Origin: Octopus vulgaris
Taxonomy: Eukaryota
Assembly (NCBI GenBank): GCA_951406725.2
Contig: OX597820.1
Location: forward strand, 100,068,001-100,132,000
Direction: 5' to 3'
DNA length: 64,000 bases
The position numbers and the translations under genes were made by a program. The notes under the pieces were generated by a model. The model was given only the letters and a program-made list of their open reading frames with translations. It made no database searches and was not told the DNA's origin. How positions within the stretch are numbered: the first letter of the stretch is position 1; each line of letters begins with the position of its first letter. Positions 17,576-63,864 of the stretch are shown piece by piece.

Positions 17576-17579
17576 TATA

Positions 17580-19035: not shown

Positions 19036-19050
19036 ATAATAAAAAATTAA

Positions 19051-19110
19051 ATTAAAGAAAAGACTATTGTCTATAAAGTATACAGTGTAGAGAAGAAAGA
19101 AGATTCGAAC
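19051..19110 (+). pseudogene. 5' part of a decayed LINE ORF1 split by the array/LINE insertion
   Basis: Translates IKEKTIVYKVYSVEKKEDSN, aligning to ISNRRIIYKTFSITNRAIQK of the LINE ORF1; continues in register at 63548. Confidence 0.6.
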
Positions 19111-19250
19111 ACAGCGAGCAAATTTACCCACGTGTGTTGTTATCTGTGATTAGAAGTTGAAATTTTGTTGTGTAAAGTGATTAATATCGCGCGAGGCGTT
19201 TGCCTCCACGTTTGGAAACCTTCAGAAGAAGGTGAATTGACCCTCTAGTC

Positions 19251-20649
19251 ATGGCGACTTACGCGGGGGTCACGGGAAAGAATAATAATGATTCAGCAAT
19301 AATCGTGAAGGATGTTTTCTTTGAGAAAAGCAAAATAAAGAATATGAAAAGCTATTCAAAAGGGAGGGTGATAGCGTGAAGCTAATCCCCCCGCGAAAGC
19401 AAAGGAGGACAAGGAAAACAAAACTGTAACGTATAGAACCCAGGACAAAAGTACAAAGAAACTGGCAAGAGTGGAGATAGCAGAGATCGAAAAATGTCTG
19501 GGAGACATAATGAATAAATCGACCTACGTGAGTAGAGGAAAAAAATTTGGTACGGTGGAGGTGAGATGTGCAACGGAAGAAATTGCAGCCTCACTGGCTA
19601 CCACTGTTCTAAGAGCGGAAACATTTATAATGTGGCCCTCATACAAGGGAAGAAGAGGGGTCCGGGTTAAAATCCCGAATATACCCCCAGAAGTTAAAAC
19701 AGATTGGCTGGCAACAGCTATTCTAGGAGCAGCAGAAGAGGAAGTGGAGGTGGAATCCTTTAAGGAGTCCAACGCAGTAAATTGGAGAGGATATGGGGTA
19801 GAACTGTGTTTGATGGCCACAAAAGAGGACATTGAAAGGTTCCCCTATAGAATAGAAATCGAAGACGAGAAAACCCTCAGTGTAATTGTAGAGGGAAGAA
19901 AGCCAAACTGCTATTTGTGTGGGACAAGGGGGCACATTAAAAAAGAGTGCCCGTTATATGAATTCATGGCGGAGTATGAGAAGGAAATTGAAGAAAAGAA
20001 GAATACGGTAAATGAAAAAGAAAACATAGAAAAGGAGACAAAACAACAAGAGAAAGGAAATAATAAGTCAACGAAGGAAAAAGAAATAAAAGAAAAGAAA
20101 GAAATAGAACCAAAACAGAGTCAGGAAAAGAAAAAGGAAAAAGAAACAACAGGAAAAAAACAAGAGAGAGAACAGAATCAAACGAAAAGAAAAGACGGCA
20201 CACAAAAAGAAAAAGAAAAGGAACATAAAACACGAGAAAAAGAGAGAACAGACAAAGAACCAAAAAGACAAGAGAAGGAAGAAGAAAGAAAAGAAGGCAA
20301 AAAGAGAGAAAGAGAGAAACAAAGAGAGGAGAACAAGGAAGAAATAAGCCCGAAAAGAAAAACGAGAGAAAACGTAGGACGGAAGCAAGATTACTACAAG
20401 TTAATAACCTTCCATTTCAGCCCCGAAATGAAGGAATTGACATGTAGTATGGAGGGACATGTGTGGGTCAACAGGATGACTGATCAGTGGCAGGAGACTG
20501 CTCTGATCCCCGAAGAAAGAGTCGCTGAGTTCCTCAGAGCAGCTGGAGAGAGTGTAATTTTTTACACGGGTGTTCGAGTGAAAGAGCGGCTGCCTGAGGG
20601 CTCAGTGATTGACTTTAGAGACTTGAAAAGTATTATGGAATACGTGTGA
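19251..20649 (+). CDS. ORF1-like CCHC zinc-knuckle protein, copy 1 (two 1-bp deletions near N-terminus)
   Basis: 392 aa open from 19471; CYLCGTRGHIKKEC knuckle; 2 nt shorter than the intact copy. Confidence 0.75.
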
Positions 20650-21033
20650 GATTGTGAGAGGAGAGAGAAGAAAGAAGAGAAAAAAAAAAAAAAAAATTGT
20701 GAACTTTATGTGACGAAAATGTAACCTCTCGATTCCGGGGATCGAGTGGGCATTTGCATCTCATTGTAAATATTCTTTCATTTGTCATTTTTATTTTTAT
20801 TTTTTCCCTTCTTGTCATTTCGCTTTCTTATTTTAAGTTCCCCGATTGTATTGTCCCCTCTATGTTCGCCCCTTGTGGGTAGTAATAAAATCACAGCGAG
20901 CAAATTTACCCACGTGTGTTGTTATCTTTGATTTGAAGTTGAAATTTTGTTGTGTAAAGTGATTAATATCGCGCGAGGCGTTTTGCCTCCACGTTTGGAA
21001 ACCTTCAGAAGAAGGTGAATTGACCCTCTAGTC

Positions 21034-22430
21034 ATGGCGACTTACGCGGGGGTCACGGGAAAGAATAATAATGATTCGGCAATAATCGTGAAGGATGTTT
21101 TCTTTGAGAAAAGTAAAATCAAAGAATATGAAAAGCTATTCAAAAGGGAGGGTGATAGCGTGAAGCTAATCCCCCCGCGAAAGCAAAGGAGGACAAGGAA
21201 AACAAAACTGTAACGTATAGAACCCAGGACAAAAGTACAAAGAAACTGACAAGAGTGGAGATAGCAGAGATCGAAAAATGTCTGGGAGACATAATGAATA
21301 AATCGACCTACGTGAGTAGAGGAAAAAATTTGGTACGGTGGAGGTGAGATGTGCAACGGAAGAAATTGCAGCCTCACTGGCTACCACTGTTCTAAGAGCG
21401 GAAACATTTATAATGTGGCCCTCATACAAGGGAAGAAGAGGGGTCCGGGTTAAAATCCCGAATATACCCCCAGAAGTTAAAACAGATTGGCTGGCAACAG
21501 CTATTCTAGGAGCAGCAGAAGAGGAAGTGGAGGTGGAATCCTTTAAGGAGTCCAACGCAGTAAATTGGAGAGGATATGGGGTAGAACTGTGTTTGATGGC
21601 CACAAAAGAGGACATTGAAAGGTTCCCCTATAGAATAGAAATCGAAGACGAGAAAACCCTCAGTGTAATTGTAGAGGGAAGAAAGCCAAACTGCTACTTG
21701 TGGGACAAGGGGGCACATTAAAAAAGAGTGCCCGTTATATGAATTCATGGCGGAGTATGAGAAGGAAATTGAAGAAAAGAAGAATACGGTAAATGAAAAA
21801 GAAAACATAGAAAAGGAGACAAAACAACAAGAGAAAGGAAATAATAAGTCAACGAAGGAAAAAGAAATAAAAGAAAAGAAAGAAATAGAACCAAAACAGA
21901 GTCAGGAAAAGAAAAAGGAAAAAGAAACAACAGGAAAAAAACAAGAGAGAGAACAGAATCAAACGAAAAGAAAAGACGGCACACAAAAAGAAAAAGAAAA
22001 GGAACATAAAACACGAGAGAAAGAGAGAACAGATAAAGAACCAAAAAGACAAGAGAAGGAAGAAGAAAGAAAAGAAGGCAAAAAGAGAGAAAGAGAGAAA
22101 CAAAGAGAGGAGAACAAGGAAGAAGTAAGCCCGAAAAGAAAAACGAGAGAAAACGTAGGACGGAAACAAGATTACTACAAGTTAATAACCTTCCATTTCA
22201 GCCCCGAAATGAAGGAATTGACATGTAGTATGGAGGGACATGTGTGGGTCAACAGGATGACTGATCAGTGGCAGGAGACTGCTCTGATCCCCGAAGAAAG
22301 AGTCGCTGAGTTCCTCAGAGCAGCTGGAGAGAGTGTAATTTTTTACACGGGTGTTCGAGTGAAAGAGCGGCTGCCTGAGGGCTCAGTGATTGACTTTAGA
22401 GACTTGAAAAGTATTATGGAATACGTGTGA
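21034..22430 (+). CDS. ORF1-like protein, copy 2 (frameshifted)
   Basis: Indels at the C run, an A run and a TG dinucleotide. Confidence 0.7.
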
Positions 22431-22815
22431 GATTGTGAGAGGAGAGAGAAGAAAGAAGAGAAAAAAAGAAAAAAAAAATTGTGAACTTTATGTGACGAAA
22501 ATGTAACCTCTCGATTCCGGGGATCGAGTGGGCATTTGCATCTCATTGTAAATATTCTTTCATTTGTCATTTTTATTTTTATTTTTTCCCTTCTTGTCAT
22601 TTCGCTTTCTTATTTTAAGTTCCCCGATTGTATTGTCCCCTCTATGTTCGCCCCTTGTGGGTAGTAATAAAATCACAGCGAGCAAATTTACCCACGTGTG
22701 TTGTTATCTTTGATTTGAAGTTGAAATTTTGTTGTGTAAAGTGATTAATATCGCGCGAGGCGTTTTGCCTCCACGTTTGGAAACCTTCAGAAGAAGGTGA
22801 ATTGACCCTCTAGTC

Positions 22816-24216
22816 ATGGCGACTTACGCGGGGGTCACGGGAAAGAATAATAATGATTCGGCAATAATCGTGAAGGATGTTTTCTTTGAGAAAAGTAAAA
22901 TCAAAGAATATGAAAAGCTATTCAAAAGGGAGGGTGATAGCGTGAAGCTAATCCCCCCGCGAAAGCAAAGGAGGACAAGGAAAACAAAACTGTAACGTAT
23001 AGAACCCAGGACAAAAGTACAAAGAAACTGACAAGAGTGGAGATAGCAGAGATCGAAAAATGTCTGGGAGACATAATGAATAAATCGACCTACGTGAGTA
23101 GAGGAAAAAAATTTGGTACGGTGGAGGTGAGATGTGCAACGGAAGAAATTGCAGCCTCACTGGCTACCACTGTTCTAAGAGCGGAAACATTTATAATGTG
23201 GCCCTCATACAAGGGAAGAAGAGGGGTCCGGGTTAAAATCCCGAATATACCCCCAGAAGTTAAAACAGATTGGCTGGCAACAGCTATTCTAGGAGCAGCA
23301 GAAGAGGAAGTGGAGGTGGAATCCTTTAAGGAGTCCAACGCAGTAAATTGGAGAGGATATGGGGTAGAACTGTGTTTGATGGCCACAAAAGAGGACATTG
23401 AAAGGTTCCCCTATAGAATAGAAATCGAAGACGAGAAAACCCTCAGTGTAATTGTAGAGGGAAGAAAGCCAAACTGCTACTTGTGTGGGACAAGGGGGCA
23501 CATTAAAAAAGAGTGCCCGTTATATGAATTCATGGCGGAGTATGAGAAGGAAATTGAAGAAAAGAAGAATACGGTAAATGAAAAAGAAAACATAGAAAAG
23601 GAGACAAAACAACAAGAGAAAGGAAATAATAAGTCAACGAAGGAAAAAGAAATAAAAGAAAAGAAAGAAATAGAACCAAAACAGAGTCAGGAAAAGAAAA
23701 AGGAAAAAAGAAACAACAGGAAAAAAACAAGAGAGAGAACAGAATCAAACGAAAAGAAAAGACGGCACACAAAAAGAAAAAGAAAAGGAACATAAAACAC
23801 GAGAGAAAGAGAGAACAGATAAAGAACCAAAAAGACAAGAGAAGGAAGAAGAAAGAAAAGAAGGCAAAAAGAGAGAAAGAGAGAAACAAAGAGAGGAGAA
23901 CAAGGAAGAAGTAAGCCCGAAAAGAAAAACGAGAGAAAACGTAGGACGGAAACAAGATTACTACAAGTTAATAACCTTCCATTTCAGCCCCGAAATGAAG
24001 GAATTGACATGTAGTATGGAGGGACATGTGTGGGTCAACAGGATGACTGATCAGTGGCAGGAGACTGCTCTGATCCCCGAAGAAAGAGTCGCTGAGTTCC
24101 TCAGAGCAGCTGGAGAGAGTGTAATTTTTTACACGGGTGTTCGAGTGAAAGAGCGGCTGCCTGAGGGCTCAGTGATTGACTTTAGAGACTTGAAAAGTAT
24201 TATGGAATACGTGTGA
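22816..24216 (+). CDS. ORF1-like protein, copy 3 (frameshifted)
   Basis: C6 instead of C7; +1 A near 23705. Confidence 0.7.
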
Positions 24217-24598
24217 GATTGTGAGAGGAGAGAGAAGAAAGAAGAGAAAAAAGAAAAAAAAATTGTGAACTTTATGTGACGAAAATGTAACCTCTCGATT
24301 CCGGGGATCGAGTGGGCATTTGCATCTCATTGTAAATATTCTTTCATTTGTCATTTTTATTTTTATTTTTTCCCTTCTTGTCATTTCGCTTTCTTATTTT
24401 AAGTTCCCCGATTGTATTGTCCCCTCTATGTTCGCCCCTTGTGGGTAGTAATAAAATCACAGCGAGCAAATTTACCCACGTGTGTTGTTATCTGTGATTA
24501 GAAGTTGAAATTTTGTTGTGTAAAGTGATTAATATCGCGCGAGGCGTTTGCCTCCACGTTTGGAAACCTTCTGAAGAAGGTGAATTGACCCTCTAGTC

Positions 24599-25998
24599 AT
24601 GGCGACTTACGCGGGGGTCACGGGAAAGAATAATAACGATTCGGCAATAATCGTGAAGGATGTTTTCTTTGAGAAAAGTAAAATCAAAGAATATGAAAAG
24701 CTATTCAAAAGGGAGGGTGATAGCGTGAAGCTAATCCCCCCGCGAAAGCAAAGGAGGACAAGGAAAACAAAACTGTAACGTATAGAACCCAGGACAAAAG
24801 TACAAAGAAACTGGCAAGAGTGGAGATAGCAGAGATCGAAAAATGTCTGGGAGACATAATGAATAAATCGACCTACGTGAGTAGAGGAAAAAAATTTGGT
24901 ACGGTAGAGGTGAGATGTGCAACGGAAGAAATTGCAGCCTCACTGGCTACCACTGTTCTAAGAGCGGAAACATTTATAATGTGGCCCTCATACAAGGGAA
25001 GAAGAGGGGTCCGGGTTAAAATCCCGAATATACCCCCAGAAGTTAAAACAGATTGGCTGGCAACAGCTATTCTAGGAGCAGCAGAAGAGGAAGTGGAGGT
25101 GGAATCCTTTAAGGAGTCCAACGCAGTAAATTGGAGAGGATATGGGGTAGAACTGTGTTTGATGGCCACAAAAGAGGACATTGAAAGGTTCCCCTATAGA
25201 ATAGAAATCGAAGACGAGAAAACCCTCAGTGTAATTGTAGAGGGAAGAAAGCCAAACTGCTACTTGTGCGGGACAAGGGGGCACATTAAAAAAGAGTGCC
25301 CGTTATATGAATTCATGGCGGAGTTTGAGAAGGAAACTGAAGAAAAGAAGAATACGGTAAATGAAAAAGAAAACATAGAAAAGGAGACAAAACAACAAGA
25401 GAAAGGAAATAATAAGTCAACGAAGGAAAAAGAAATAAAAGAAAAGAAAGAAATAGAACCAAAACAGAGTCAGGAAAAGAAAAAGGAAAAAGAAACAACA
25501 GGAAAAAAACAAGAGAGAGAACAGAATCAAACGAAAAGAAAAGACGGCACACAAAAAGAAAAAGAAAAGGAACATAAAACACGAGAGAAAGAGAGAACAG
25601 ACAAAGAACCAAAAAGACAAGAGAAGGAAGAAGAAAGAAAAGAAGGCAAAAAGAGAGAAAGAGAGAAACAAAGAGAGGAGAACAAGGAAGAAGTAAGCCC
25701 GAAAAGAAAAACGAGAGAAAACGTAGGACGGAAACAAGATTACTACAAGTTAATAACCTTCCATTTCAGCCCCGAAATGAAGGAATTGACATGTAGTATG
25801 GAGGGACATGTGTGGGTCAACAGGATGACTGATCAGTGGCAGGAGACTGCTCTGATCCCCGAAGAAAGAGTCGCTGAGTTCCTCAGAGCAGCTGGAGAGA
25901 GTGTAATTTTTTACACGGGTGTTCGAGTGAAAGAGCGGCTGCCTGAGGGCTCAGTGATTGACTTTAGAGACTTGAAAAGTATTATGGAATACGTGTGA
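24599..25998 (+). CDS. ORF1-like protein, copy 4 (single C-run frameshift)
   Basis: 392 aa open from 24820. Confidence 0.75.
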
Positions 25999-26380
25999 GA
26001 TTGTGAGAGGAGAGAGAAGAAAGAAGAGAAAAAAGAAAAAAAAATTGTGAACTATATGTGACGAAAGTGTAACCTCTCGATTCCGGGGATCGAGTGGGCA
26101 TTTGCATCTCATTGTAAATATTCTTTCATTTGTCATTTTTATTTTTATTTTTTCCCTTCTTGTCATTTCGCTTTCTTATTTTAAGTTCCCCGATTGTATT
26201 GTCCCCTCTATGTTCGCCCCTTGTGGGTAGTAATAAAATCACAGCGAGGAAATTTACCCACGTGTGTTGTTATCTGTGATTAGAAGTTGAAATTTTGTTG
26301 TGTAAAGTGATTAATATCGCGCGAGGCGTTTGCCTCCACGTTTGGAAACCTTCTGAAGAAGGTGAATTGACCCTCTAGTC

Positions 26381-27779
26381 ATGGCGACTTACGCGGGGGT
26401 CACGGGAAAGAATAATAACGATTCGGCAATAATCGTGAAGGATGTTTTCTTTGAGAAAAGTAAAATCAAAGAATATGAAAAGCTATTCAAAAGGGAGGGT
26501 GATAGCGTGAAGCTAATCCCCCCGCGAAAGCAAAGGAGGACAAGGAAAACAAAACTGTAACGTATAGAACCCAGGACAAAAGTACAAAGAAACTGGCAAG
26601 AGTGGAGATAGCAGAGATCGAAAAATGTCTGGGAGACATAATGAATAAATCGACCTACGTGAGTAGAGGAAAAAAATTTGGTACGGTAGAGGTGAGATGT
26701 GCAACGGAAGAAATTGCAGCCTCACTGGCTACCACTGTTCTAAGAGCGGAAACATTTATAATGTGGCCCTCATACAAGGGAAGAAGAGGGGTCCGGGTTA
26801 AAATCCCGAATATACCCCCAGAAGTAAAAACAGAATGGCTGGCAACAGCTATTCTAGGAGCAGCAGAAGAGGAAGTGGAGGTGGAATCCTTTAAGGAGTC
26901 CAACGCAGTAAATTGGAGAGGATATGGGGTAGAACTGTGTTTGATGGCCACAAAAGAGGACATTGAAAGGTTCCCCTATAGAATAGAAATCGAAGACGAG
27001 AAAACCCTCAGTGTAATTGTAGAGGGAAGAAAGCCAAACTGCTACTTGTGCGGGACAAGGGGGCACATTAAAAAAGAGTGCCCGTTATATGAATTCATGG
27101 CGGAGTATGAGAAGGAAATTGAAGAAAAGAAGAATACGGTAAATGAAAAAGAAAACATAGAAAAGGAGACAAAACAACAAGAGAAAGGAAATAATAAGTC
27201 AACGAAGGAAAAAGAAATAAAAGAAAAGAAAGAAATAGAACCAAAACAGAGTCAGGAAAAGAAAAAGGAAAAAGAAACAACAGGAAAAAACAAGAGAGAG
27301 AACAGAATCAAACGAAAAGAAAAGACGGCACACAAAAAGAAAAAGAAAAGGAACATAAAACACGAGAGAAAGAGAGAACAGACAAAGAACCAAAAAGACA
27401 AGAGAAGGAAGAAGAAAGAAAAGAAGGCAAAAAGAGAGAAAGAGAGAAACAAAGAGAGGAGAACAAGGAAGAAGTAAGCCCGAAAAGAAAAACGAGAGAA
27501 AACGTAGGACGGAAACAAGATTACTACAAGTTAATAACCTTCCATTTCAGCCCCGAAATGAAGGAATTGACATGTAGTATGGAGGGACATGTGTGGGTCA
27601 ACAGGATGACTGATCAGTGGCAGGAGACTGCTCTGATCCCCGAAGAAAGAGTCGCTGAGTTCCTCAGAGCAGCTGGAGAGAGTGTAATTTTTTACACGGG
27701 TGTTCGAGTGAAAGAGCGGCTGCCTGAGGGCTCAGTGATTGACTTTAGAGACTTGAAAAGTATTATGGAATACGTGTGA
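26381..27779 (+). CDS. ORF1-like protein, copy 5 (frameshifted)
   Basis: C6; -1 A near 27290. Confidence 0.7.
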
Positions 27780-28161
27780 GATTGTGAGAGGAGAGAGAAG
27801 AAAGAAGAGAAAAAAGAAAAAAAAATGTGAACTATATGTGACGAAAATGTAACCTCTCGATTCCGGGGATCGAGTGGGCATTTGCATCTCATTGTAAATA
27901 TTCTTTCATTTGTCATTTTTTATTTTTATTTTTTCCCTTCTTGTCATTTCGCTTTCTTATTTTAAGTTCCCCGATTGTATTGTCCCCTCTATGTTCGCCC
28001 CTTGTGGGTAGTAATAAAATCACAGCGAGGAAATTTACCCACGTGTGTTGTTATCTGTGATTAGAAGTTGAAATTTTGTTGTGTAAAGTGATTAATATCG
28101 CGCGAGGCGTTTGCCTCCACGTTTGGAAACCTTCTGAAGAAGGTGAATTGACCCTCTAGTC

Positions 28162-29561
28162 ATGGCGACTTACGCGGGGGTCACGGGAAAGAATAATAAC
28201 GATTCGGCAATAATCGTGAAGGATGTTTTCTTTGAGAAAAGTAAAATCAAAGAATATGAAAAGCTATTCAAAAGGGAGGGTGATAGCGTGAAGCTAATCC
28301 CCCCGCGAAAGCAAAGGAGGACAAGGAAAACAAAACTGTAACGTATAGAACCCAGGACAAAAGTACAAAGAAACTGGCAAGAGTGGAGATAGCAGAGATC
28401 GAAAAATGTCTGGGAGACATAATGAATAAATCGACCTACGTGAGTAGAGGAAAAAAATTTGGTACGGTAGAGGTGAGATGTGCAACGGAAGAAATTGCAG
28501 CCTCACTGGCTACCACTGTTCTAAGAGCGGAAACATTTATAATGTGGCCCTCATACAAGGGAAGAAGAGGGGTCCGGGTTAAAATCCCGAATATACCCCC
28601 AGAAGTAAAAACAGAATGGCTGGCAACAGCTATTCTAGGAGCAGCAGAAGAGGAAGTGGAGGTGGAATCCTTTAAGGAGTCCAACGCAGTAAATTGGAGA
28701 GGATATGGGGTAGAACTGTGTTTGATGGCCACAAAAGAGGACATTGAAAGGTTCCCCTATAGAATAGAAATCGAAGACGAGAAAACCCTCAGTGTAATTG
28801 TAGAGGGAAGAAAGCCAAACTGCTACTTGTGCGGGACAAGGGGGCACATTAAAAAAGAGTGCCCGTTATATGAATTCATGGCGGAGTATGAGAAGGAAAT
28901 TGAAGAAAAGAAGAATACGGTAAATGAAAAAGAAAACATAGAAAAGGAGACAAAACAACAAGAGAAAGGAAATAATAAGTCAACGAAGGAAAAAGAAATA
29001 AAAGAAAAGAAAGAAATAGAACCAAAACAGAGTCAGGAAAAGAAAAAGGAAAAAGAAACAACAGGAAAAAAACAAGAGAGAGAACAGAATCAAACGAAAA
29101 GAAAAGACGGCACACAAAAAGAAAAAGAAAAGGAACATAAAACACGAGAGAAAGAGAGAACAGACAAAGAACCAAAAAGACAAGAGAAGGAAGAAGAAAG
29201 AAAAGAAGGCAAAAAGAGAGAAAGAGAGAAACAAAGAGAGGAGAACAAGGAAGAAGTAAGCCCGAAAAGAAAAACGAGAGAAAACGTAGGACGGAAACAA
29301 GATTACTACAAGTTAATAACCTTCCATTTCAGCCCCGAAATGAAGGAATTGACATGTAGTATGGAGGGACATGTGTGGGTCAACAGGATGACTGATCAGT
29401 GGCAGGAGACTGCTCTGATCCCCGAAGAAAGAGTCGCTGAGTTCCTCAGAGCAGCTGGAGAGAGTGTAATTTTTTACACGGGTGTTCGAGTGAAAGAGCG
29501 GCTGCCTGAGGGCTCAGTGATTGACTTTAGAGACTTGAAAAGTATTATGGAATACGTGTGA
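28162..29561 (+). CDS. ORF1-like protein, copy 6 (single C-run frameshift)
   Basis: 392 aa open from 28383. Confidence 0.75.
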
Positions 29562-29942
29562 GATTGTGAGAGGAGAGAGAAGAAAGAAGAGAAAAAAAAA
29601 AAAAAATGTGAACTATATGTGACGAAAATGTAACCTCTCGATTCCGGGGATCGAGTGGGCATTTGCATCTCATTGTAAATATTCTTTCATTTGTCATTTT
29701 TTATTTTTATTTTTTCCCTTCTTGTCATTTCGCTTTCTTATTTTAAGTTCCCCGATTGTATTGTCCCCTCTATGTTCGCCCCTTGTGGGTAGTAATAAAA
29801 TCACAGCGAGGAAATTTACCCACGTGTGTTGTTATCTGTGATTAGAAGTTGAAATTTTGTTGTGTAAAGTGATTAATATCGCGCGAGGCGTTTGCCTCCA
29901 CGTTTGGAAACCTTCTGAAGAAGGTGAATTGACCCTCTAGTC

Positions 29943-51314: not shown

Positions 51315-52714
51315 ATGGCGACTTACGCGGGGGTCACGGGAAAGAATAATAATGATTCGGCAATAATCGTGAAGGATGTTTTCTTTGAGAAAAGTAAAAT
51401 CAAAGAATATGAAAAGCTATTCAAAAGGGAGGGTGATAGCGTGAAGCTAATCCCCCCGCGAAAGCAAAAGAGGACAAAGAAAACAAAACTGTAACGTATA
51501 GAACCCAGGACAAAAGTACAAAGAAACTGGCAAGAGTGGAGATAGCAGAGATCGAAAAATGTCTGGGAGACATAATGGATAAATCGACCTACGTGAGTAG
51601 AGGAAAAAAATTTGGTACGGTGGAGGTGAGATGTGCAACGGAAGAAATTGCAGCCTCACTGGCTACCACTGTTCTAAGAGCGGAAACATTTATAATGTGG
51701 CCCTCATACAAGGGAAGAAGAGGGGTCCGGGTTAAAATCCCGAATATACCCCCAGAAGTAAAAACAGAATGGCTGGCAACAGCTATTCTAGGAGCAGCAG
51801 AAGAGGAAGTGGAGGTGGAATCCTTTAAGGAGTCCAACGCAGTAAATTGGAGAGGATATGGGGTAGAACTGTGTTTGATGGCCACAAAAGAGGACATTGA
51901 AAGGTTCCCCTATAGAATAGAAATCGAAGACGAGAAAACCCTCAGTGTAATTGTAGAGGGAAGAAAGCCAAACTGCTACTTGTGCGGGACAAGGGGGCAC
52001 ATTAAAAAAGAGTGCCCGTTATATGAATTCATGGCGGAGTATGAGAAGGAAACTGAAGAAAAGAAGAATACGGTAAATGAAAAAGAAAACATAGAAAAGG
52101 AGACAAAACAACAAGAGAAAGGAAATAATAAGTCAACGAAGGAAAAAGAAATAAAAGAAAAGAAAGAAATAGAACCAAAACAGAGTCAGGAAAAGAAAAA
52201 GGAAAAAGAAACAACAGGAAAAAAACAAGAGAGAGATCAGAATCAAACGAAAAGAAAAGACGGCACACAAAAAGAAAAAGAAAAGGAACATAAAACACGA
52301 GAGAAAGAGAGAACAGACAAAGAACCAAAAAGACAAGAGAAGGAAGAAGAAAGAAAAGAAGGCAAAAAGAGAGAAAGAGAGAAACAAAGAGAGGAGAACA
52401 AGGAAGAAGTAAGCCCGAAAAGAAAAACGAGAGAAAACGTAGGACGGAAACAAGATTACTACAAGTTAATAACCTTCCATTTCAGCCCCGAAATGAAGGA
52501 ATTGACATGTAGTATGGAGGGACATGTGTGGGTCAACAGGATGACTGATCAGTGGCAGGAGACTGCTCTGATCCCCGAAGAAAGAGTCGCTGAGTTCCTC
52601 AGAGCAGCTGGAGAGAGTGTAATTTTTTACACGGGTGTTCGAATGAAAGAGCGGCTGCCTGAGGGCTCAGTGATTGACTTTAGAGACTTGAAAAGTATTA
52701 TGGAATACGTGTGA
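51315..52714 (+). CDS. ORF1-like protein, copy 19 (single C-run frameshift)
   Basis: 392 aa open from 51536. Confidence 0.75.
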
Positions 52715-53089
52715 GATTGTGAGAGGAGAGAGAAGAAAGAAAGAAAAAAAAAAAAAAAATTGTGAACTATATGTGACGAAAATGTAACCTCTCGATTCCG
52801 GGGATCGAGTGGGCATTTGCATCTCATTGTAAATATTCTTTCATTTGTCATTTTTATTTTTATTTTTTCCTTTCTTGTCATTTCGCTTTCTTATTTTAAG
52901 TTCCCCGATTGTATTGTCCCCTCTATGTTCGCCCCTTGTGGGTAGTAATAAAATCACATCGGGAAATTTGCGTGTTGTTATCTGTGATTAGACAGTTGAA
53001 ATTTTGTTGTGTAAAGTGATTAATATCGCGCGAGGCGTTTGCCTCCACGTTTGGAAACCTTCCGAAGAAGGTGAATTGACCCTCTAGTC

Positions 53090-54490
53090 ATGGCGACTTA
53101 CGCGGGGGTCACGGGAAAGAAAAATAATGATTCGTCGATAATCGTGAAGGATGTTTTCTTTGAGAAAAGTAAACTCAAAGAATATGAAAAGCTATTCAAA
53201 AGGGAGGGTGATAGCGTGAAGCTAATCCCCCCGCGAAAGCAAAAGAGGACAAAGAAAACAAGACTGTAACGTATAGAACCCAGGACAAAAGTACAAAGAA
53301 ACTGGCAAGAGTGGAGATAGCAGAGATCGAAAAATGTCTGGGAGACATAATGGATAAATCGACCTACGTGAGTAGAGGAAAAAATTTGGTACGGTGGAGG
53401 TGAGATGTGCAACGGAAGAAATTGCAGCCTCACTGGCTACCACTGTTCTAAGAGCGGAAACATTTATAATGTGGCCCTCATACAAGGGAAGAAGAGGGGT
53501 CCGGGTTAAAATCCCGAATATACCCCCAGAAGTAAAAACAGAATGGCTGGCAACAGCTATTCTAGGAGCAGCAGAAGAGGAAGTGGAGGTGGAATCCTTT
53601 AAGGAGTCCAACGCAGTAAATTGGAGAGGATATGGGGTAGAACTGTGTTTGATGGCCACAAAAGAGGACATTGAAAGGTTCCCCTATAGAATAGAAATCG
53701 AAGACGAGAAAACCCTCAGTGTAATTGTAGAGGGAAGAAAGCCAAACTGCTACTTGTGCGGGACAAGGGGGCACATTAAAAAAGAGTGCCCGTTATACGA
53801 ATTCGTAGCGGAGTGCGAGCAGGAACTCGAAGAAAAGAAGAATACGGTAAATGAAAAAGAAAACATAGAAAAGGAAACAAAACAACAAGAGAAAGGAAAT
53901 AATAAGTCAACGAAGGAAAAAGAAATAAAAGAAAAGAAAGAAATAGAACCAAAACAGAGTCAGGAAAAGAAAAAGGAAAAAGAAACAACAGGAAAAAAAC
54001 AAGAGAGAGATCAGAATCAAACGAAAAGAAAAGACGGCACACAAAAAGAAAAAGAAAAGGAACATAAAACACGAGAGAAAGAGAGAACAGACAAAGAACC
54101 AAAAAGACAAGAGAAGGAAGGAGAAAGAAAAGAAGGCAAAAAGAGAGAAAGAGAGAAACAAAGAGAGGAGAACAAGGAAGAAATAAGCCCGAAAAGAAAA
54201 ACGAGAGAAAACGTAGGACGGAAACAAGATTATTCTACAAGTTAATAACCTTCCATTTCAGCCCCGAAATGAAGGAATTGACATGTAGTATGGAGGGACA
54301 TGTGTGGGTCAACAGGATGACTGATCAGTGGCAGGAGACTGCTCTGATCCCCGAAGAAAGAGTCGCTGAGTTCCTCAGAGCAGCTGGAGAGAGTGTAATT
54401 TTTTACACGGGTGTTCGAATGAAAGAGCGGCTGCCTGAGGGCTCAGTGATTGACTTTAGAGACTTGAAAAGTATTATGGAATACGTGTGA
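53090..54490 (+). CDS. ORF1-like protein, copy 20 (frameshifted)
   Basis: C6, -1 A, +2 near 54233; FVAECEQEL variant. Confidence 0.7.
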
Positions 54491-54873
54491 GATTGTGAGA
54501 GGAGAGAGAAGAAAGAAGAGAAAAAAAAAAAAAAAATTGTGAACTATATGTGACGAAAATGTAACCTCTCGATTCCGGGGATCGAGTGGGCATTTGCATC
54601 TCATTGTAAATATTCTTTCATTTGTCATTTTTACTTTTATTTTTTCCTTTTCTTGTCATTTCGCTTTCTTATTTTAAGTTCCCCGATTGTATTGTCCCCT
54701 CTATGTTCGCCCCTTGTGGGTAGTAATAAAATCACATCGAGGAAATTTACCCACGTGTGTTGTTATCTGTGATTAGACGTTGAAATTTTGTTGTGTAAAG
54801 TGATTAATATCGCGCGAGGCGTTTGCCTCCACGTTTGGAAACCTTCCGAAGAAGGTGAATTGACCCTCTAGTC

Positions 54874-56271
54874 ATGGCGACTTACGCGGGGGTCACGGGA
54901 AAGAAAAATAATGATTCGGCAATAATCGTGAAGGATGTTTTCTTTGAGAAGAGTAAACTCAAAGAATATGAAAAACTATTCAAAAGGGAGGGTGATAGCG
55001 TGAAGCTAATCCCCCCGCGAAAGCAAAAGAGGACAAAGAAAACAAGACTGTAACGTATAGAACCCAGGACAAAAGTACAAAGAAACTGGCAAGAGTGGAG
55101 ATAGCAGAGATCGAAAAATGTCTGGGAGACATAATGGATAAATCGACCTACGTGAGTAGAGGAAAAATTTGGTACGGTGGAGGTGAGATGTGCAACGGAA
55201 GAAATTGCAGCCTCACTGGCTACCACTGTTCTAAGAGCGGAAACATTTATAATGTGGCCCTCATACAAGGGAAGAAGAGGGGTCCGGGTTAAAATCCCGA
55301 ATATACCCCCAGAAGTAAAAACAGAATGGCTGGCAACAGCTATTCTAGGAGCAGCAGAAGAGGAAGTGGAGGTGGAATCCTTTAAGGAGTCCAACGCAGT
55401 AAATTGGAGAGGATATGGGGTAGAACTGTGTTTGATGGCCACAAAAGAGGACATTGAAAGGTTCCCCTATAGAATAGAAATCGAAGACGAGAAAACCCTC
55501 AGTGTAATTGTAGAGGGAAGAAAGCCAAACTGCTACTTGTGCGGGACAAGGGGGCACATTAAAAAAGAGTGCCCGTTATACGAATTCGTAGCGGAGTGCG
55601 AGCAGGAACTCGAAGAAAAGAAGAATACGGTAAATGAAAAAGAAAACATAGAAAAGGAAACAAAACAACAAGAGAAAGGAAATAATAAGTCAATGAAGGA
55701 AAAAGAAATAAAAGAAAAGAAAGAAATAGAACCAAAACAGAGTCAGGAAAAGAAAAAGGAAAAAGAAACAACAGGAAAAAAACAAGAGAGAGATCAGAAT
55801 CAAACGAAAAGAAAAGACGGCACACAAAAAGAAAAAGAAAAGGAACATAAAACACGAGAGAAAGAGAGAACAGACAAAGAACCAAAAAGACAAGAGAAGG
55901 AAGAAGAAAGAAAAGAAGGCAAAAAGAGAGAAAGAGAGAAACAAAGAGAGGAGAACAAGGAAGAAATAAGCCCGAAAAGAAAAACGAGAGAAAACGTAGG
56001 ACGGAAACAAGATTACTACAAGTTAATAACCTTCCATTTCAGCCCCGAAATGAAGGAATTGACATGTAGTACGGAGGGACATGTGTGGGTCAACAGGATG
56101 ACTGATCAGTGGCAGGAGACTGCTCTGATCCCCGAAGAAAGAGTCGCTGAGTTCCTCAGAGCAGCTGGAGAGAGTGTAATTTTTTACACGGGTGTTCGAA
56201 TGAAAGAGCGGCTGCCTGAGGGCTCAGTGATTGACTTTAGAGACTTGAAAAGTATTATGGAATACGTGTGA
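54874..56271 (+). CDS. ORF1-like protein, copy 21 (frameshifted)
   Basis: C6 and -2 A; 364 aa open from 55177. Confidence 0.7.
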
Positions 56272-56654
56272 GATTGTGAGAGGAGAGAGAAGAAAGAAGA
56301 GAAAAAAGAAAAAAAAAATTGTGAACTATATGTGACGAAAATGTAACCTCTCGATTCCGGGGATCGAGTGGGCATTTGCATCTCATTGTAAATATTCTTT
56401 CATTTGTCATTTTTACTTTTATTTTTTCCTTTTCTTGTCATTTCGCTTTCTTATTTTAAGTTCCCCGATTGTATTGTCCCCTCTATGTTCGCCCCTTGTG
56501 GGTAGTAATAAAATCACATCGAGGAAATTACCCACGTGTGTTGTTATCTGTGATTAGAAGTTGAAATTTTGTTGTGTAAAGTGATTAATATCGCGCGAGG
56601 CGTTTGCCTCCACCTGTGGAAACCTTCCGAAGAAGGTGAATTGACCCTCTAGTC

Positions 56655-58052
56655 ATGGCGACTTACGCGGGGGTCACGGGAAAGAAAAATAATGATTCGT
56701 CGATAATCGTGAAGGATGTTTTCTTTGAGAAAAGTAAACTCAAAGAATATGAAAAGCTATTCAAAAGGGAGGGTGATAGCGTGAAGCTAATCCCCCCGCG
56801 AAAGCAAAAGAGGACAAAGAAAACAAGACTGTAACGTATAGAACCCAGGACAAAAGTACAAAGAAACTGGCAAGAGTGGAGATAGCAGAGATCGAAAAAT
56901 GTCTGGGAGACATAATGGATAAATCGACCTACGTGAGTAGAGGAAAAAATTTGGTACGGTGGAGGTGAGATGTGCAACGGAAGAAATTGCAGCCTCACTG
57001 GCTACCACTGTTCTAAGAGCGGAAACATTTATAATGTGGCCCTCATACAAGGGAAGAAGAGGGGTCCGGGTTAAAATCCCGAATATACCCCCAGAAGTAA
57101 AACAGAATGGCTGGCAACAGCTATTCTAGGAGCAGCAGAAGAGGAAGTGGAGGTGGAATCCTTTAAGGAGTCCAACGCAGTAAATTGGAGAGGATATGGG
57201 GTAGAACTGTGTTTGATGGCCACAAAAGAGGACATTGAAAGGTTCCCCTATAGAATAGAAATCGAAGACGAGAAAACCCTCAGTGTAATTGTAGAGGGAA
57301 GAAAGCCAAACTGCTACTTGTGCGGGACAAGGGGGCACATTAAAAAAGAGTGCCCGTTATACGAATTCGTAGCGGAGTGCGAGCAGGAACTCGAAGAAAG
57401 AAGAATACGGTAAATGAAAAAGAAAACATAGAAAAGGAAACAAAACAACAAGAGAAAGGAAATAATAAGTCAATGAAGGAAAAAGAAATAAAAGAAAAGA
57501 AAGAAATAGAACCAAAACAGAGTCAGGAAAAGAAAAAGGAAAAAGAAACAACAGGAAAAAAACAAGAGAGAGATCAGAATCAAACGAAAAGAAAAGACGG
57601 CACACAAAAAGAAAAAGAAAAGGAACATAAAACACGAGAGAAAGAGAGAACAGACAAAGAACCAAAAAGACAAGAGAAGGAAGGAGAAAGAAAAGAAGGC
57701 AAAAAGAGAGAAAGAGAGAAACAAAGAGAGGAGAACAAGGAAGAAATAAGCCCGAAAAGAAAAACGAGAGAAAACGTAGGACGGAAACAAGATTACTACA
57801 AGTTAATAACCTTCCATTTCAGCCCCTGAAATGAAGGAATTGACATGTAGTACGGAGGGACATATGTGGGTCAACAGGATGACTGATCAGTGGCAGGAGA
57901 CTGCTCTGATCCCCGAAGAAAGAGTCGCTGAGTTCCTCAGAGCAGCTGGAGAGAGTGTAATATTTTACACGGGTGTTCGAATGAAAGAGCGGCTGCCTGA
58001 GGGCTCAGTGATTGACTTTAGAGACTTGAAAGGTATTATGGAATACGTGTGA
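56655..58052 (+). CDS. ORF1-like protein, copy 22 (several frameshifts)
   Basis: Several 1-bp indels, mostly in homopolymers. Confidence 0.65.
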
Positions 58053-58291
58053 GATTGTGAGAGAGAGAGAAGAAAGAAGAGAAAAAGAAAAAAATTGTGA
58101 ACTATATGTGACGAAAATGTAACCTCTCGATTCCGGGGATCGAGTGGGCATTTGCATCTCATTGTAAATATTCTTTCATTTGTCATTTTTACTTTTATTT
58201 TTTCCTTTTCTTGTCATTTCGCTTTCTTATTTTAAGTTCCCCGATTGTATTGTCCCCTCTATGTTCGCCCCTTGTGGGTAGTAATAAAATC

Positions 58292-58303
58292 ACATGGAGG
58301 AAA
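58292..58303 (+). repeat. Putative target-site duplication, left copy (ACATGGAGGAAA)
   Basis: Identical 12-mer at 63546-63557, right after the LINE 3' end. Confidence 0.75.
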
Positions 58304-58520
58304 TCAATTTTTTGCGTTATTAGTAAGTTGATATATATTTTTGCTCTCATACTACTTATCTCTGTTATTATATACTGTTGGTCTACCTTTTTTGTCCATT
58401 GTTGTCTAACGGACGAAGTCAACCTTCGCGCGAAGACTTCGCGTTGGTGTTCCCCCCTCAGTGGGGGAAAACTACAATCAATTTAGATTACCAAAGGCTT
58501 GTTAAAGCCATTTGTTCAAG

Positions 58521-59983
58521 ATGGAGTCCCCCATCACTTATTCGCCCGTGACGAGCGAGGATGAATACCCGGCGTTGTCGCCAAGTAAAAAAGAGGCGTT
58601 GTCGCCAAGAAAAAAAGAGGCGCTGTCGCCGAAGAAAAAAGAGGCGGAGTCGCCCAAGAAAATGGTAAAACCAGTACCAGCATCAACTCCAGCAAAAAAA
58701 TTCGCTGAAGTGGCTGGGAAGAAAATTAAAAAAATTAACGTGGACAACCTGGGAAAACATGCGGACTGTGTGTCAAAAGAGGGCACGGAAGTAACCGTGG
58801 CTTCAAACGCCAAAATACAGGAGGATATTTCGAATAGGAGAATAATCTATAAGACATTTAGTATAACAAACAGAGCAATCCAAAAAATAGAGGAGAAAAA
58901 GATTGAAAACTGCTTAAAGCCAATAATGGATAAAATTACGTATATCAATCGAGGGAAGAAATACGGCACAGTGGAGGTGAGATTCACGTCAGAGGAGGTA
59001 GCGAAGAAGCTATCCATGGAACCCATAAAAGCGGAGGATATTGTTCTCCTACCCCTGTATAAAGGCAAGAGAACTTCCAAGATCTCAATGAACAACATCC
59101 CGCCAGAAGCGGATGCCGAAGTCCTAGTGGCAGCAGTTATGGTAGGCCTGGAGGAAAAAATAAACATCCTCCAGGCCACCGTAGAAGAAGAAGAATTCTG
59201 GAAAGGGCAAAAGATAATAATAGCCATACAAGCAGAAGTACAAACCCTGGAAGAGATCCCAGAGACTCTAAGGATAAGCGAAGATGAAAGAGTCACAGTC
59301 TTCGTAGAGGGCAGAAAGCCGAGGTGCTTCGGCTGCGGTAAGAAGGGGCATGTAAGGGCGGAATGCCAGCCCCAACCCAAACCGCAGGAAGCACCTAAGC
59401 CAAAAGAAAAAGAAGACAATGTGTCACCAGAAGCAGCGTCAGACGGCCCAGAAGGGAAGACTGAAGGTGTGGAGGTGATGGTAACAGCAGAACCAGCGGC
59501 GGAGAAAAAAAGAGCGAGGAAAAGATAAATGAGGAGGGGTGGGCAAAAATTATCGGAAAAAAAAAAAAGAAAAACGGAAACCACCCCTCCCAGAGTAATT
59601 TTAAAAAAGAAAAAAGAGTCAATGAACTCATATATGGCCGTAAAAGCATCAAATAGCAGACTCGGAAACGTGTTGGCAGCCATGGCCAATGTGAAGAGAG
59701 TAGAGAAAAAAATGACTTTGTAATTTACAAAATAGACCGGAAGGATTACGGGCGGATAAAGTCAGATTTCTTCCATGACGTAGGCCCACTTAGGTTGGAT
59801 GTAACATCTCCACATATATTCGAGGGCCTACGTCAGACTCCCCCACGAGGCCCAGAAAAAGAGAAGGAAAGAAGAAAAAACCGAACCACTGATATAAAGG
59901 TAAGTAATGGATTACATTTATGTTGGTTGTTTAAATGTGCGCGGCCTGGGAGCAGGCTGGAAGCAAGGTCGCTTCCTGCATGA
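58521..59983 (+). CDS. LINE ORF1 (nucleic-acid-binding, CCHC knuckle), with frameshifts in purine/A runs near 59505-59560 and 59710
   Basis: ATG at 58521; CFGCGKKGHVRAEC; open to 59528. Shifted frames continue through 59529-59723 and then to TGA at 59981-59983; the C-terminal extent is inferred. Confidence 0.75.
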
Positions 59984-62900
59984 TATCAGGTCGCGTAATT
60001 TAGATGTTATTGTTGCTACAGAAACCCGGCTAGAGGGGCCAAGAGGTCTACTCCCGCTGTTTGACGGCTACGAGAGTTTTTTCTCTCCTGGCAGTCCTAC
60101 AGGCGGGAGTGGGGTGTTGGTCCTATTAAAAAGAAACCGGGTTTCTGAGAAAAAGTTAATTTTTGCAGATCCAGAAGGTAGGCTGGTCGTCATGGATTTG
60201 ACGTTCAGTAATGGTAAAGTTATCAGACTGGTTGCAATTTACGCACCCAACCATACAGGGCAAAGTGATTATTTTCGTGAACTAGAAAACTTTCTTGGTA
60301 CTTCGCATTCATTAGTGGTGCTAGGAGACTTTAACACAATTTGCAAAGCGGATGTAGATTATGTTGGCTCGTGTCCAGATAGAAAAGGCAACAGTGGCTT
60401 CATGGAACTGCTAAGCCGCTTTGAGCTAGCAGATCCTTATAGGCTGGAATTTCCGAACGCTCCATTGTGGACATGGTCAAACAGCGACGGATCTTCCAGG
60501 TCGTATCTAGATAGAATACTAATTAGAAAAGTAGACAGTAAAATAGCTAAGTGTCCACAGTTTTACCCGATCAGCTACAGTGATCATAAAATGGTCACTT
60601 GTAAGCTTGACATAGATAAGGTTAAAAATAGAGGATCCGGTTACTGGAAACTTAATACGTCCCTTTTGGCGATTAAGGAGTACAAAGACCGGATTAGGAA
60701 TATAATTCAGAGGGCACTATCTGGTACCATCATTAATAACAAATGGTGGTACGTCCTCAAACGAGCCATCAAGTTTGAGTCTATTAGATAGCATAGGAGT
60801 AGTGGCTAGAGAGGCTAGAAGGGAAACTACTCTAGTTAAGGAATTAGAGGAAGCCATGAAAACTGGCTCTGCGGCTCAGGTGGCGGCCAAGAGACTGGTG
60901 TTAAACCAGCACCTCGAGGCCAAACACATGGGCTGCATTGTCAGGGCTAGAATCCGTCATATGGGATGTGAAGGAATCAACGCCGTGAGATGGGCCCGAG
61001 TGGTGGAAGCTCAGCATGGTAACGATGCCACGATTCGATCTTTGACGAACCAACAAGGTGAGTTGATAAACGAACCCGAGGAGATGTGTGAGGCCTTTCA
61101 GGAGCACTTCGCTCAGCTTTTCGGTGAGTGCGGCGGACTGGATAGGAGGAGGGCCTTTACGGACCTACTCGACGGTCTGCCGCGCTTATCGGGGCAAGAT
61201 GCGGAGGGCTGTGAAGGGCCAATCACGCCTGAGGAGGTGGTTGAGGCAATGGCGGACTGCGGCGCGGGCAAGGCGCCGGGTTTGGATGGTCTACCCTATG
61301 AGTTATATAAGAGTATGCCAGACTTGTTCGGGCACCTACTGGCGGAGGTCTACGCGAACTGGCAGCAGAACGGGCTTATACCCAGATCTGTGCGTCGGGG
61401 AGTAGTGACTCTCGTCAGAAAGGATCCGAGCAAGGGGGAGTGCATTGATAATTTCAGGCCCATCACTCTGCTAAACACAGAGTTGAAGATTTTGGCCAAA
61501 GTGTTATCGAAAAGATTGGCGCGTGTCGCGGATGGTCTGATCGGAGGGGCACAGACATGTGCCGTTCCGGGCAGATCCATTCAGGATAATCTCCATCTAA
61601 TGCGGTACACTATAGAGGGGTTTAATAGTGATTCTGGCAAGGGTGGGGCACTGGTCCATTTAGACCAATCTAAAGCTTTTGATAGGGTCGACCATCGTTA
61701 CCTGGTATCTGCCCTGGCACAGTTCGGGCTGAGCCTTGGATTCCTCAGGTGGATTATCCAAATTTATGATAACATCGACTCGGTAGTTCGGGTGAACGGC
61801 TTCTTGTCGAAGCCGTTCAAAATCAAACGCTCGGTTCGTCAAGGGTGTCCGCTCTCCCCGCTTTTGTACGTGATGGCTCTTGAGCCATTACTGCGAAAAC
61901 TGAGCGGCATCCCGAGACAGCCAGGTAATGGAAAATCAGTGTCAGCGTACGCGGATGACATCACCATCATCGTAACCGAAATGGACCACCTATGTAAAGT
62001 AGGCAAGGCCATAGAGGTGTACGAGACGGTGACAGGAGCAAAAGTTAATCGCGAAAAGTCAGTCGGCTTGCAACTCGGCACCTGGAGAGGCAAGTCGATG
62101 CCTCCTGACAGCGTCGTGGGACGTTGGACGGAGGGTCCGATTAAACTGCTAGGGGTCTGGTTCGGTCCAGACCTCCAAATAGAGAAGAATTGGGGCGAGG
62201 TAACGAGCAAGGTGGCTGCAGTAGCCAAGACCTGGTCTTGGCGGTGGCTATCCCTGAAAGGGAGGGCGGAGGTGGCCAATGTGTTTATCGCATCGGTTAT
62301 CACCTACCGCCTTTCCGTCGTTCCTTGCCCTGATTCGTGGTTGATCAAGTTGGAAAGACAGCTCTTCTACTTCTTGTGGAAGGGCGGGAAACCACTTGTG
62401 AAACGCTCTACTTGCTGTCAACAACCGTTAAAGGGTGGGCTAGGGATGCCTTGGCTGATGATGCGCAGACATGCGCTGAGGTTAAGACATCTGTGGCTCT
62501 ACCTGGATGGTGAACGGGTGTGGTCTTCGCTAGCAAAACTGATGTTTCCCAAGTTCACTAGTTTCGGTGGATGGGAAACCTGGCTGAATCGTAGATCGAA
62601 ACTTGGTACTTGGTACACGGAGTGTCGCAAGGCTCTCCTGCTATTCCGTCGCTCGGGCAACGCCTGCGGTGGGGGTTCCACCACTTTCTTCTATAGAGGG
62701 TTGGTAGAGGCGGAATGTGAAGATACCTTGGGGAAACCCTAGGTCTCGACGATAACCAGCTGGCCAGTCTGTTCCGACGTACGTTCGAGCCAAGGACACT
62801 GGACAACTTCCAGAAGTCTCTGGCATGGCAATGCTACAGAGGAGCTCTACCTGTTCGGGATAAACTCGCAAGGCACGGTGGCCAAGACAGTCCGATATGT

Positions 62901-63299
62901 CCAAGATGCGGGCGGGATAGGGAAACCGTCCCGCACGCGATTGTTCATTGTCCGGACGTGTCTGAGGTGTGGGTTTATGCCGAACACCTGTTGTCAGGTA
63001 CACGAAGAGTACAGCTGTCGACTGAGTCGATTACAAAAATTGACCCACCGGATTTCCTCGTGAATGAAGGTAAGTTTCGTTTTCTCGTTGTAGTAGCAAT
63101 CGCGAAAGAGGTGATATGGAAGACGAGAATGAAAGGTTTACAGTCAGGCAAGTTCATCTCCGGCCCTGGTTTGATGAATTATTTCATCTTTCACCTGAAA
63201 AGGAAGATAGGGCTGGAGAGAATATGCCTGACTAGGAGAGCGTATGAAGAACGATGGAAGGATGTAGCACGGAAGTTGCGAATGAAAGTTACAACATAA
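59907..63299 (+). CDS. LINE ORF2: APE endonuclease + reverse transcriptase + C-terminal Cys/His motif (two frameshifts, near 60788 and 62732)
   Basis: EN motifs LNVRGL, ETRL, IYAPN, GDFN, LDRIL, SDH; linker GYWKLNTSLL; RT motifs KAPGLDG, FRPITLLN, KAFDRV, RQGCPLSP, YADD, KGGLG; C-terminal CPRCGRDRETVPHAIVHC. Typical of Tx1/L1. Confidence 0.93.
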
Positions 63300-63499
63300 A
63301 TGTAATACCAAGTGCAACCAAAAGTATCAGTGGGGAGGCGGGGCTCGTGGGGTCCGAGCTAAACCCGCACCCACTCCACCCGTAATGTCTTCCGGTCTGT
63401 CCTATCACTCGATTTCTGTCCATTTATTGTTATTCATGAAAATTTTTAAACCCGATTTATTGTAAAAACCCATTCGTTTGTCTGACCCCATCATCAGAA

Positions 63500-63545
63500 T
63501 GTATTGTCCCATCTGTGTTCGCCCCTTGTGGGTAATAATAAAACA
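63500..63545 (+). other. Conserved 3' terminal sequence shared by LINE, array units and a SINE; includes polyadenylation-like AATAAA
   Basis: tgtattgtcccatctgtgttcgccccttgtgggtaataataaaa vs unit tgtattgtcccctctatgttcgccccttgtgggtagtaataaaa, 41/44 identical. Confidence 0.85.
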
Positions 63546-63830
63546 ACATGGAGGAAAGCACCTTCGAAAAGTGTCTTGGTGCGACTATGAAAGACATCTA
63601 ATCAGAGGCGGTAAGTTCGCCACAATAGAAGCAAGGTTCGAGTCAACGGAGCGTGCAAGGGAGTACTCGACTAGAACTTGCAAAGTGGAATTTTTTCATT
63701 TTTACCTTTATATCTGGGACGTAGGACGTCCCGGTAAAAAAAATTTAAATGCCTCCCATCTAGAAGTAGAGGTAGGCTGGATTGTAGCCACACGTCTATA
63801 CCAGAAGGAAGGACAAAATACAATTGATCG
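63546..63830 (+). pseudogene. 3' part of the decayed ORF1 that was the insertion target; begins with the right TSD copy
   Basis: In shifting frames: MEESTFEKCLGATMK, RGGKFATIEARFESTERA, LPLYLGRRTSR, EVEVGWIVA. These are collinear with IEEKKIENCL, RGKKYGTVEVRFTSEEVA, LPLYKGKRTSK (LINE) and EVKTEWLATA (unit). Confidence 0.75.
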
Positions 63831-63864
63831 AAATTACAAGAGATGGATTAACAATTCCAGTCTG

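Follow-up and report, generated by a model that had tools for sequence, protein, structure and literature searches.

What directs a retrotransposon and its non-autonomous partners to one and the same base of a 2.8-Gb genome? The question is raised by a locus of Octopus vulgaris, a window of 64,000 nucleotides (contig OX597820.1, positions 100,068,001 to 100,132,000 of the forward strand; coordinates below count from its first base), in which a block of 44,435 bp (19111-63545) interrupts the decayed first open reading frame (ORF1) of a third family. The block consists of 22 units that carry ORF1 only and of one long interspersed nuclear element (LINE), which we assign to the Tx1 type. A preliminary description of this DNA held that the block had been inserted in codon register and that its family may target the ORF1 of a related retroelement. 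Here, we present evidence that this is a real and strongly targeted system, in which the LINE and its half-size partners insert repeatedly at one exact base of a small DNA transposon. It is probably the transposon around the site, and not the ORF1 fossil within it, that determines where they land.

The two flanks of the block are halves of a single ORF1-derived stretch. In a frameshift-aware alignment an empty paralog scores 129 against the ORF1 of the LINE, 100 against that of the units and 353 against that of the donor LINEs described below, the background from dinucleotide shuffles being about 30 ± 4 with a maximum of 45. The part left of the site, taken alone, scores 71 against the donor (background 23.6 ± 3.5) and is 80% identical to donor copy L231 over 71 nucleotides (nt; E 3e-13). 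An alignment of this kind is required, since plain tblastn with the unit and LINE ORF1 misses so short a relic; a protein search with the longest relic frame of the window, a weak test, found no match among longer proteins. Uninterrupted copies of the rebuilt junction occur as 345 exact matches genome-wide and at 20 of the 30 best-scoring loci fetched, the other 10, one of them the window, holding an element that ends at the same base; one empty paralog, 99.6% identical, lies 6 kb upstream of the window. The 12-mer ACATGGAGGAAA, which had been seen to flank the LINE, is present only at window positions 58292 and 63546. It belongs to a duplication of about 16 bp that matches at 14 of 16 positions at 58292 and is a clean 16 bp at another locus (L283), and duplications of 14-19 bp were found at 11 of 26 off-target loci.

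The insertion in codon register, by comparison, did not hold. The real empty junction reads GAAC/ACATGG (the slash marks the cut, which falls after the first base of a His codon), and joining 19110 to 63548 loses two real bases. Of the 19 empty sites at which the Tyr-to-Cys spacing (described earlier as 22 residues) could be measured, 12 have 65 nt, where 63 would keep the frame, and 3 are in frame. The peptide EKKEDSN/MEE, read across the join, is discarded because in it two errors cancel: an A-tract ahead of the site has gained 2 nt, and the join leaves out 2 nt. The spacing of 22 residues is, by accident, correct for the ancestor, as in-frame copies with KKRFEHL across the site attest (L159-L161), and incorrect for the join in the window.

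Genome-wide, 106 exact sites are filled and 345 are empty at the same base, so that this is targeting and not chance. When 30 LINE 3' ends were chosen regardless of their flank, 21 lay on the host site, 6 on the head of a following element and 3 elsewhere; of 30 unit ends, 7 of them from the window, 28 were inside trains, with 1 on the site and 1 elsewhere. A hand count of the first 100 of 179 exact LINE tails (found by a pattern that excludes C at +23) placed 55 on the site, 6 on a variant site, 10 on train heads and 29 elsewhere; target-specific non-long-terminal-repeat elements have been defined by more than 20% of flanks being of one type (PMC4494074), and here 55 of 100 share one base. 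In an active or donor ORF1 the corresponding point was hit by none of the 60 sampled 3' ends and by none of these 100 tails. At five loci the tail is one base shorter, compatible with an unchanged cut or with one shifted by one base. Across 20 occupied loci the host sequences are 6.5% apart (median), compared with 0.4% for the LINE tails, so that these are separate insertion events.

These counts bear on the simplest alternative, namely that the window shows chance nesting, a single composite copied by the Helitron-like repeat, or an artefact of assembly. Seven of the units are only 0-2 substitutions apart and frameshifts in homopolymers are many, so that some of the units may stem from tandem amplification or from errors of assembly. 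Set against this are the 106 exact occupied sites, which lie on most large contigs and involve several families, the host divergence, 15-fold above that of the LINE, and the finding that 3 of 5 local paralogs carry different insertions. As an account of the locus this alternative is extremely improbable, and for the targeting itself it is already refuted.

The DNA that receives these elements is a dispersed repeat, of which the right flank alone yields 1936 candidates genome-wide. Together the two flanks make up one repeat of 1.16 kb (18441-19110 and 63546-64035) with ends A/TC and hairpin-CTAG/T; CTAG/T was found at 41 of 52 loci and A/TC at 16 of 21, a few of these loci being the same place or paralogs. 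The repeat was inserted at the dinucleotide A/T of an older related repeat, here called the sister, without duplication, and 15 of 15 non-paralogous sister copies (L112-L126) are uninterrupted there. Homology between sister and host ends 75 nt before the site. Judged by its ends and insertion pattern, the host bears the marks of a non-autonomous Helitron. It occurs in three forms: a long form with an additional 570 bp, to which 30 of the 42 least-decayed copies examined belong; a short form, that of the window; and a relic-deleted variant, which lacks about -7 to +297 and has 137 exact empty copies. All 25 occupied loci with a resolved left flank are Helitron copies rather than stand-alone copies of a retroelement, and the relic at the site is an internal piece of the Helitron-like repeat, not a retroelement copy. 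A sequence considered as a 5' leader (L280) proved to be a nested Helitron end. At one long-form copy (L209) an element with a donor-like 3' tail lies about 10 nt upstream of the 5' start of the relic, perhaps a second, older landing site.

The third family supposed by the preliminary description exists as stand-alone donor LINEs. A protein search with the open long-form relic gave 150 scored matches of 14661 candidates, and of the 10 fetched, chosen mostly for long open frames or for matches ending early, 6 are stand-alone elements whose ORF1 extends past the end of the relic, in most of them to the zinc knuckle. Five of the six have an endonuclease and a reverse transcriptase downstream of ORF1, and all are decayed. 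They share 79-85% amino acid and 78-84% DNA identity with the relic, with a ratio of nonsynonymous to synonymous divergence of 0.08-0.15. In a tree the relic and the six donors form one clade (support 100/98), from which the unit, the LINE and two further partner families are separate. By these comparisons the source of the relic is an old, rare LINE family of the Tx1 type; a pattern-based donor count was too tight, giving 3 matches and missing known copies. In the long Helitron the relic starts at the donor 5' terminus, and at this position the sister repeat has a motif resembling the start of the donor's own target, which favours an old insertion that was later cut down over capture. Three of the five donors with readable flanks lie 30-33 nt behind the TATA-like box of a solo long terminal repeat (LTR). 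A structure model of donor ORF1 (pLDDT 81.5) contains two beta-alpha domains, the best match being a La RRM (Z 8.4, root-mean-square deviation 2.9, 83 residues aligned), near the background of such searches; the fold search singled out no family beyond RRM and ferredoxin-like folds.

Several observations accompany the donors. In the donor flanks L232, L233 and L234 (e.g. G000:C12:46318500-46328499) the solo LTR, TGTAG...CTACA, contains a TATA-like box and two CCAAT-like boxes, the donors lying near an LTR start site; at L233 and L234 the LTR has a 4-bp duplication. At L237, about 1.5 kb inside donor ORF1, there is an element with long terminal inverted repeats, whose insertion point precedes the homologous site by 25-35 nt.

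If the family had become adapted to a related retroelement's ORF1 as its target, and the Helitron had amplified this target later, the ORF1 ancestry of both sides of the site would be explained, and the donors do keep nearly identical local sequence; this ancestry, the target specificity and the third family are the parts of the original proposal that stand. As a mechanism it fares poorly. None of seven donor copies (the six and one more) is occupied at the homologous site, no sampled 3' end lies at the homologous point of any intact-type ORF1, the most ORF1-like host subfamily is the least used, and the frame is broken in most targets. Moreover, LINE lineages with GATA flanks branch outside the host-targeting ones when the donors serve as root, a root that is itself weakly placed. 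We regard this history as improbable.

We consider it rather probable that the LINE machinery locates its base by Helitron sequence lying upstream of the cut, which may be a promoter, together with a short local motif, and not through ORF1 as such. The relic-deleted variant is filled at an unchanged distance of 39 nt from the shared upstream motif, the DNA downstream being entirely different, at 5 of the 6 loci fetched (the left junction of the sixth was out of range), and there the cut is pinned by unit tails without microhomology; what had looked like a second hot spot at +303 is this same site in the deletion variant. Of 607 sites of the ACCTGG type, which mark the ORF1-like form of the host, the first 100 include 2 that are occupied (Fisher P 2e-8), about tenfold below ACATGG, and the occupied ACCTGG loci with a resolved left flank (3 of 5) are all short-type. 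A deletion variant with the same offset, and a long subfamily that has the best-preserved ORF1 and is almost unused, together suggest that recognition has its anchor in Helitron sequence upstream. At hosts whose site was lost, the junctions of later partners are at -28, -41 and -82. The TATA-like box ahead of three of the five readable donors speaks for a promoter link in this clade, and the off-target copies L197 and L198 carry a host-type head inside their own duplication.

A number of points weigh against this reading. A strict TATAAA ruler was rejected, as occupied hosts have a spacing of 36-39 nt or no TATAAA at all (L270, L281, L103) and the cut is unchanged. The LINEs found in the variant form a lineage of their own, with an endonuclease about 91% identical to that of the window LINE, and since AAC immediately precedes the cut at both sites, local sequence may be enough. 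The occupancy comparison sets unlike patterns side by side, its 23% being an upper figure (about 20% when mutated flanks are allowed), and separates the base change and the upstream context only partly. The promoter is a putative one, read from sequence, and seven donor copies are too few to rule out low-level use of donor ORF1.

Several of these points would be accommodated if each LINE lineage simply read a short motif at the cut, through its endonuclease helped by the pairing of a few read-through RNA bases, the Helitron being a mere supplier of copies. Off-target sites begin with the first four bases of the lineage's main target (ACAT, ACCT, ATT-, GATA), those of the young lineage keeping ACAT without Helitron context; between lineages the endonuclease (about 89-92% identical) has diverged faster than the reverse transcriptase (91-99%); the single base that distinguishes ACCTGG from ACATGG tracks the tenfold difference in occupancy; and R1Bm is described as requiring downstream target sequence on its RNA (PMC7265360). 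However, a motif of 5-6 bases occurs millions of times, yet 61 of 100 tails lie on about 1000 host sites, the offset is the same in a variant with different downstream DNA, and the resolved occupied ACCTGG hosts are short-type. Recognition by local sequence only is therefore the less likely account, though one to be taken seriously. As a separate observation, a LINE lineage at L192, L195 and G000:C10:43625784, with a reverse transcriptase 98% and an endonuclease about 90% identical to those of the window LINE, lands on another recurrent repeat, the flank beginning with GATAC.

The identity of the inserted elements rests on their domains and on pairwise scores. ORF2 of the LINE matches PF03372, PF00078 and PF13966, corresponding to an apurinic/apyrimidinic-type (APE) endonuclease, a reverse transcriptase and a C-terminal zinc-binding domain, and a CCHC knuckle is present in ORF1. 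In phmmer comparisons its reverse transcriptase scores 263 bits with ORF2 of Xenopus Tx1L (P0085), 171 with human L1 ORF2p and 90 with R2. Being closer to Tx1L than to L1 or R2, the LINE (58292-63545) is classed as Tx1-type on these scores; in assembly GCA_951406725.2 it is split into pieces by frameshifts. The units of the window differ pairwise by 0-41 substitutions in 1740 columns (median 13). The window flanks differ from those of the empty paralog by 13 mismatches in 4034 columns and 1 in 878, and flanks so nearly identical, beside units so far apart, indicate that several source copies fed the train; the seven units with 0-2 substitutions possibly arose by tandem amplification. A crude count revealed no A-to-G excess among the units (18 A>G, 17 G>A). 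Two other ORF1-only families, seen at eleven loci (L256, L259, L271, L275, L276, L278, L282, L285, L287, L292 and L095), join the host at -12 to -14; they systematically show a GC-T-run head in place of a duplication.

The following course of events emerges. The long Helitron subfamily contains 0.8 kb of an old LINE, reaching from the LINE 5' terminus to the middle of ORF1; this piece came there somewhat more probably by an ancient insertion and subsequent loss of the LINE 3' part than by capture. The Helitron multiplied this relic to more than 1000 copies, and a deletion of 570 bp made the short subfamily, placing Helitron sequence 75 nt upstream of the present site. At that site a younger LINE and at least three ORF1-only families insert independently, with duplications of about 16 bp; the relic is likely a passenger turned landing site. 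From established target-primed reverse transcription and the junction patterns, we infer that the LINE endonuclease would nick the bottom strand at GAAC/ACAT and prime reverse transcription there, that the units may be mobilised in trans by borrowing ORF2 through their shared 3' tail, and that trains would grow leftwards, since the duplicated head recreates the site on the left. Copies at the site may be transcribed from the Helitron, in which case target-like RNA ends could help both priming and 5' joining. A bolder version, which we hold to be doubtful, is a self-renewing landing pad: a Helitron promoter would have attracted the old Tx1 LINE, deletions would have slid its dead ORF1 under the start site, and younger lineages, held at the promoter and steered by the target bases that their RNA carries, would re-target whatever lies there, specificity being inherited by position and not by sequence.

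Elements of the HAL1 and HeT-A type likewise keep ORF1 and lack ORF2, have a 3' tail in common with an autonomous LINE and form head-to-tail arrays; here, by contrast, the partner is of Tx1 type and the arrays are dispersed inside a Helitron, not telomeric. Non-autonomous Helitrons with gene fragments have ends A/TC...hairpin-CTAG/T, cause no duplication and carry a foreign coding fragment that decays as it spreads. Unlike in those, the fragment begins at a LINE 5' terminus and is now the landing site of that LINE's relatives.

Among known targets of Tx1 elements, as given in PMC4494074, are Tx1D for Xenopus Tx1L and, in crocodilians, Mariner-N4_AMi for Tx1-Mar, a Harbinger for Tx1-9_AMi and LTR retrotransposons for Tx1-8_Crp and Tx1-4_AMi. 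In common with the systems outlined there, the octopus elements use a fixed point in an abundant non-autonomous transposon, show tandem insertions around a duplication, and have non-autonomous partners that share the target, transcription from the flanking target having been proposed (PMC4494074). In contrast to those systems, a Helitron-like repeat serves as host, the ORF1 of a related LINE survives as a fossil at the site, and the partners are ORF1-only elements of 1.8 kb in trains of up to 22 rather than short interspersed elements. Target bases on the RNA are reported to aid the precise integration of R1Bm and SART1Bm (PMC7265360), and R2 to be co-transcribed, as cited in PMC4494074. The likeness lies in target-derived RNA ends, here deduced from heads and off-target motifs; those elements, in the accounts cited, belong to other clades with ribosomal DNA or telomere targets, and the evidence is experimental there and comparative here. 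An octopus repeat annotation records 13 recently active L1-Tx1 and 8 Helitron families, without target analysis in the portion of PMC13282606 used here. A literature search that did not extend to Repbase, Kojima and Fujiwara 2004 or the supplements of PMC4494074 and PMC13282606, any of which may name these families, found no description of a Tx1 element that targets a Helitron or the relic of a LINE. Tx1 targeting of DNA transposons is already known; new here are the fossil-ORF1 origin of the site and the test provided by the variant.

How target-specific LINEs switch targets is an open question, for which this genome offers a natural experiment: three host forms (long, short and relic-deleted), each with hundreds of countable empty and filled sites, together with the family from which the target DNA came and with LINE lineages that have diverged by only 5-10% and yet, at one offset, use local sequences that differ. 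With this material endonuclease recognition, RNA pairing and promoter tethering become separable. The locus also serves as a warning: the machinery need not recognise an ORF relic merely because it inserts there.

Features of the window discussed in the text
Feature	Position	Strand	Remarks
Older related Helitron-like repeat (sister), 5' part	17570..18440	+	Without ORF1 relic; host repeat inserted into it; start approximate; resumes after 64035
Host, putative non-autonomous Helitron-like repeat, 5' part	18441..19110	+	Starts with TC after A; (GTCT)n tract
ORF1 relic, left part	19038..19110	+	Start of first putative RRM-like domain; TAT AAA codons at 19072; slipped A-tract
22 ORF1-only units, head-to-tail	19111..58291	+	Each 1775-1785 bp; degenerate target 12-16-mer at start, LINE-like 3' tail at end
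ORF1 of unit 1, open part	19375..20649	+	Zinc knuckle (PF00098, E 7.5e-5); Lys/Glu-rich tail
LINE 5' head (target duplication)	58292..58307	+	14/16 identical to 63546-63561
LINE, classed as Tx1-type	58292..63545	+	ORF1 from 58521; ORF2 59907-63299 with APE endonuclease, reverse transcriptase, zf-RVT
ORF1 relic, right part	63546..63847	+	Begins at target site; several more frameshifts; 80% nt identity over 310 columns to donor L231
Host repeat, 3' part	63848..64000	+	Hairpin and CTAG end just beyond the window (position 64035)

Beyond the block, the window contains several large inverted repeat pairs between 5147 and 12565 (e.g. 6162-7322 with 10214-11295, 86%) and a region of short-period repeats around 15700-17300; ORFs of 191 codons (2210-2785, minus strand) and 187 codons (16453-17016, plus strand) have no Pfam match. 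The window lies in a local duplication of about 25 kb at G000:C7:100.00-100.20 Mb, with at least five paralogous sister-plus-host pairs, three of whose hosts are filled by different elements. In a neighbouring paralog (L091:9121-10000 and L092; G000:C7, about 100141100-100146800) an internal piece of a unit (unit positions 390-837) stands before the LINE and the left host flank is absent, suggesting a chimera or a later deletion.

Contigs of four sequencing runs, none on record as RNA, cover host and unit, and no transcript start, strand or locus-specific empty allele was seen in them. Away from the host, a recurrent off-target site (L197, L198 and G000:C11:26662510) shows an 18-bp duplication enclosing a host-type head; the three near-identical loci on contig C11 may be one event duplicated. 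On contig C25 (L040, L041, L099, L100) one and the same tRNA-like sequence, with ACATGG at its start, adjoins the 3' ends of two LINEs; by eye it resembles a short interspersed element.

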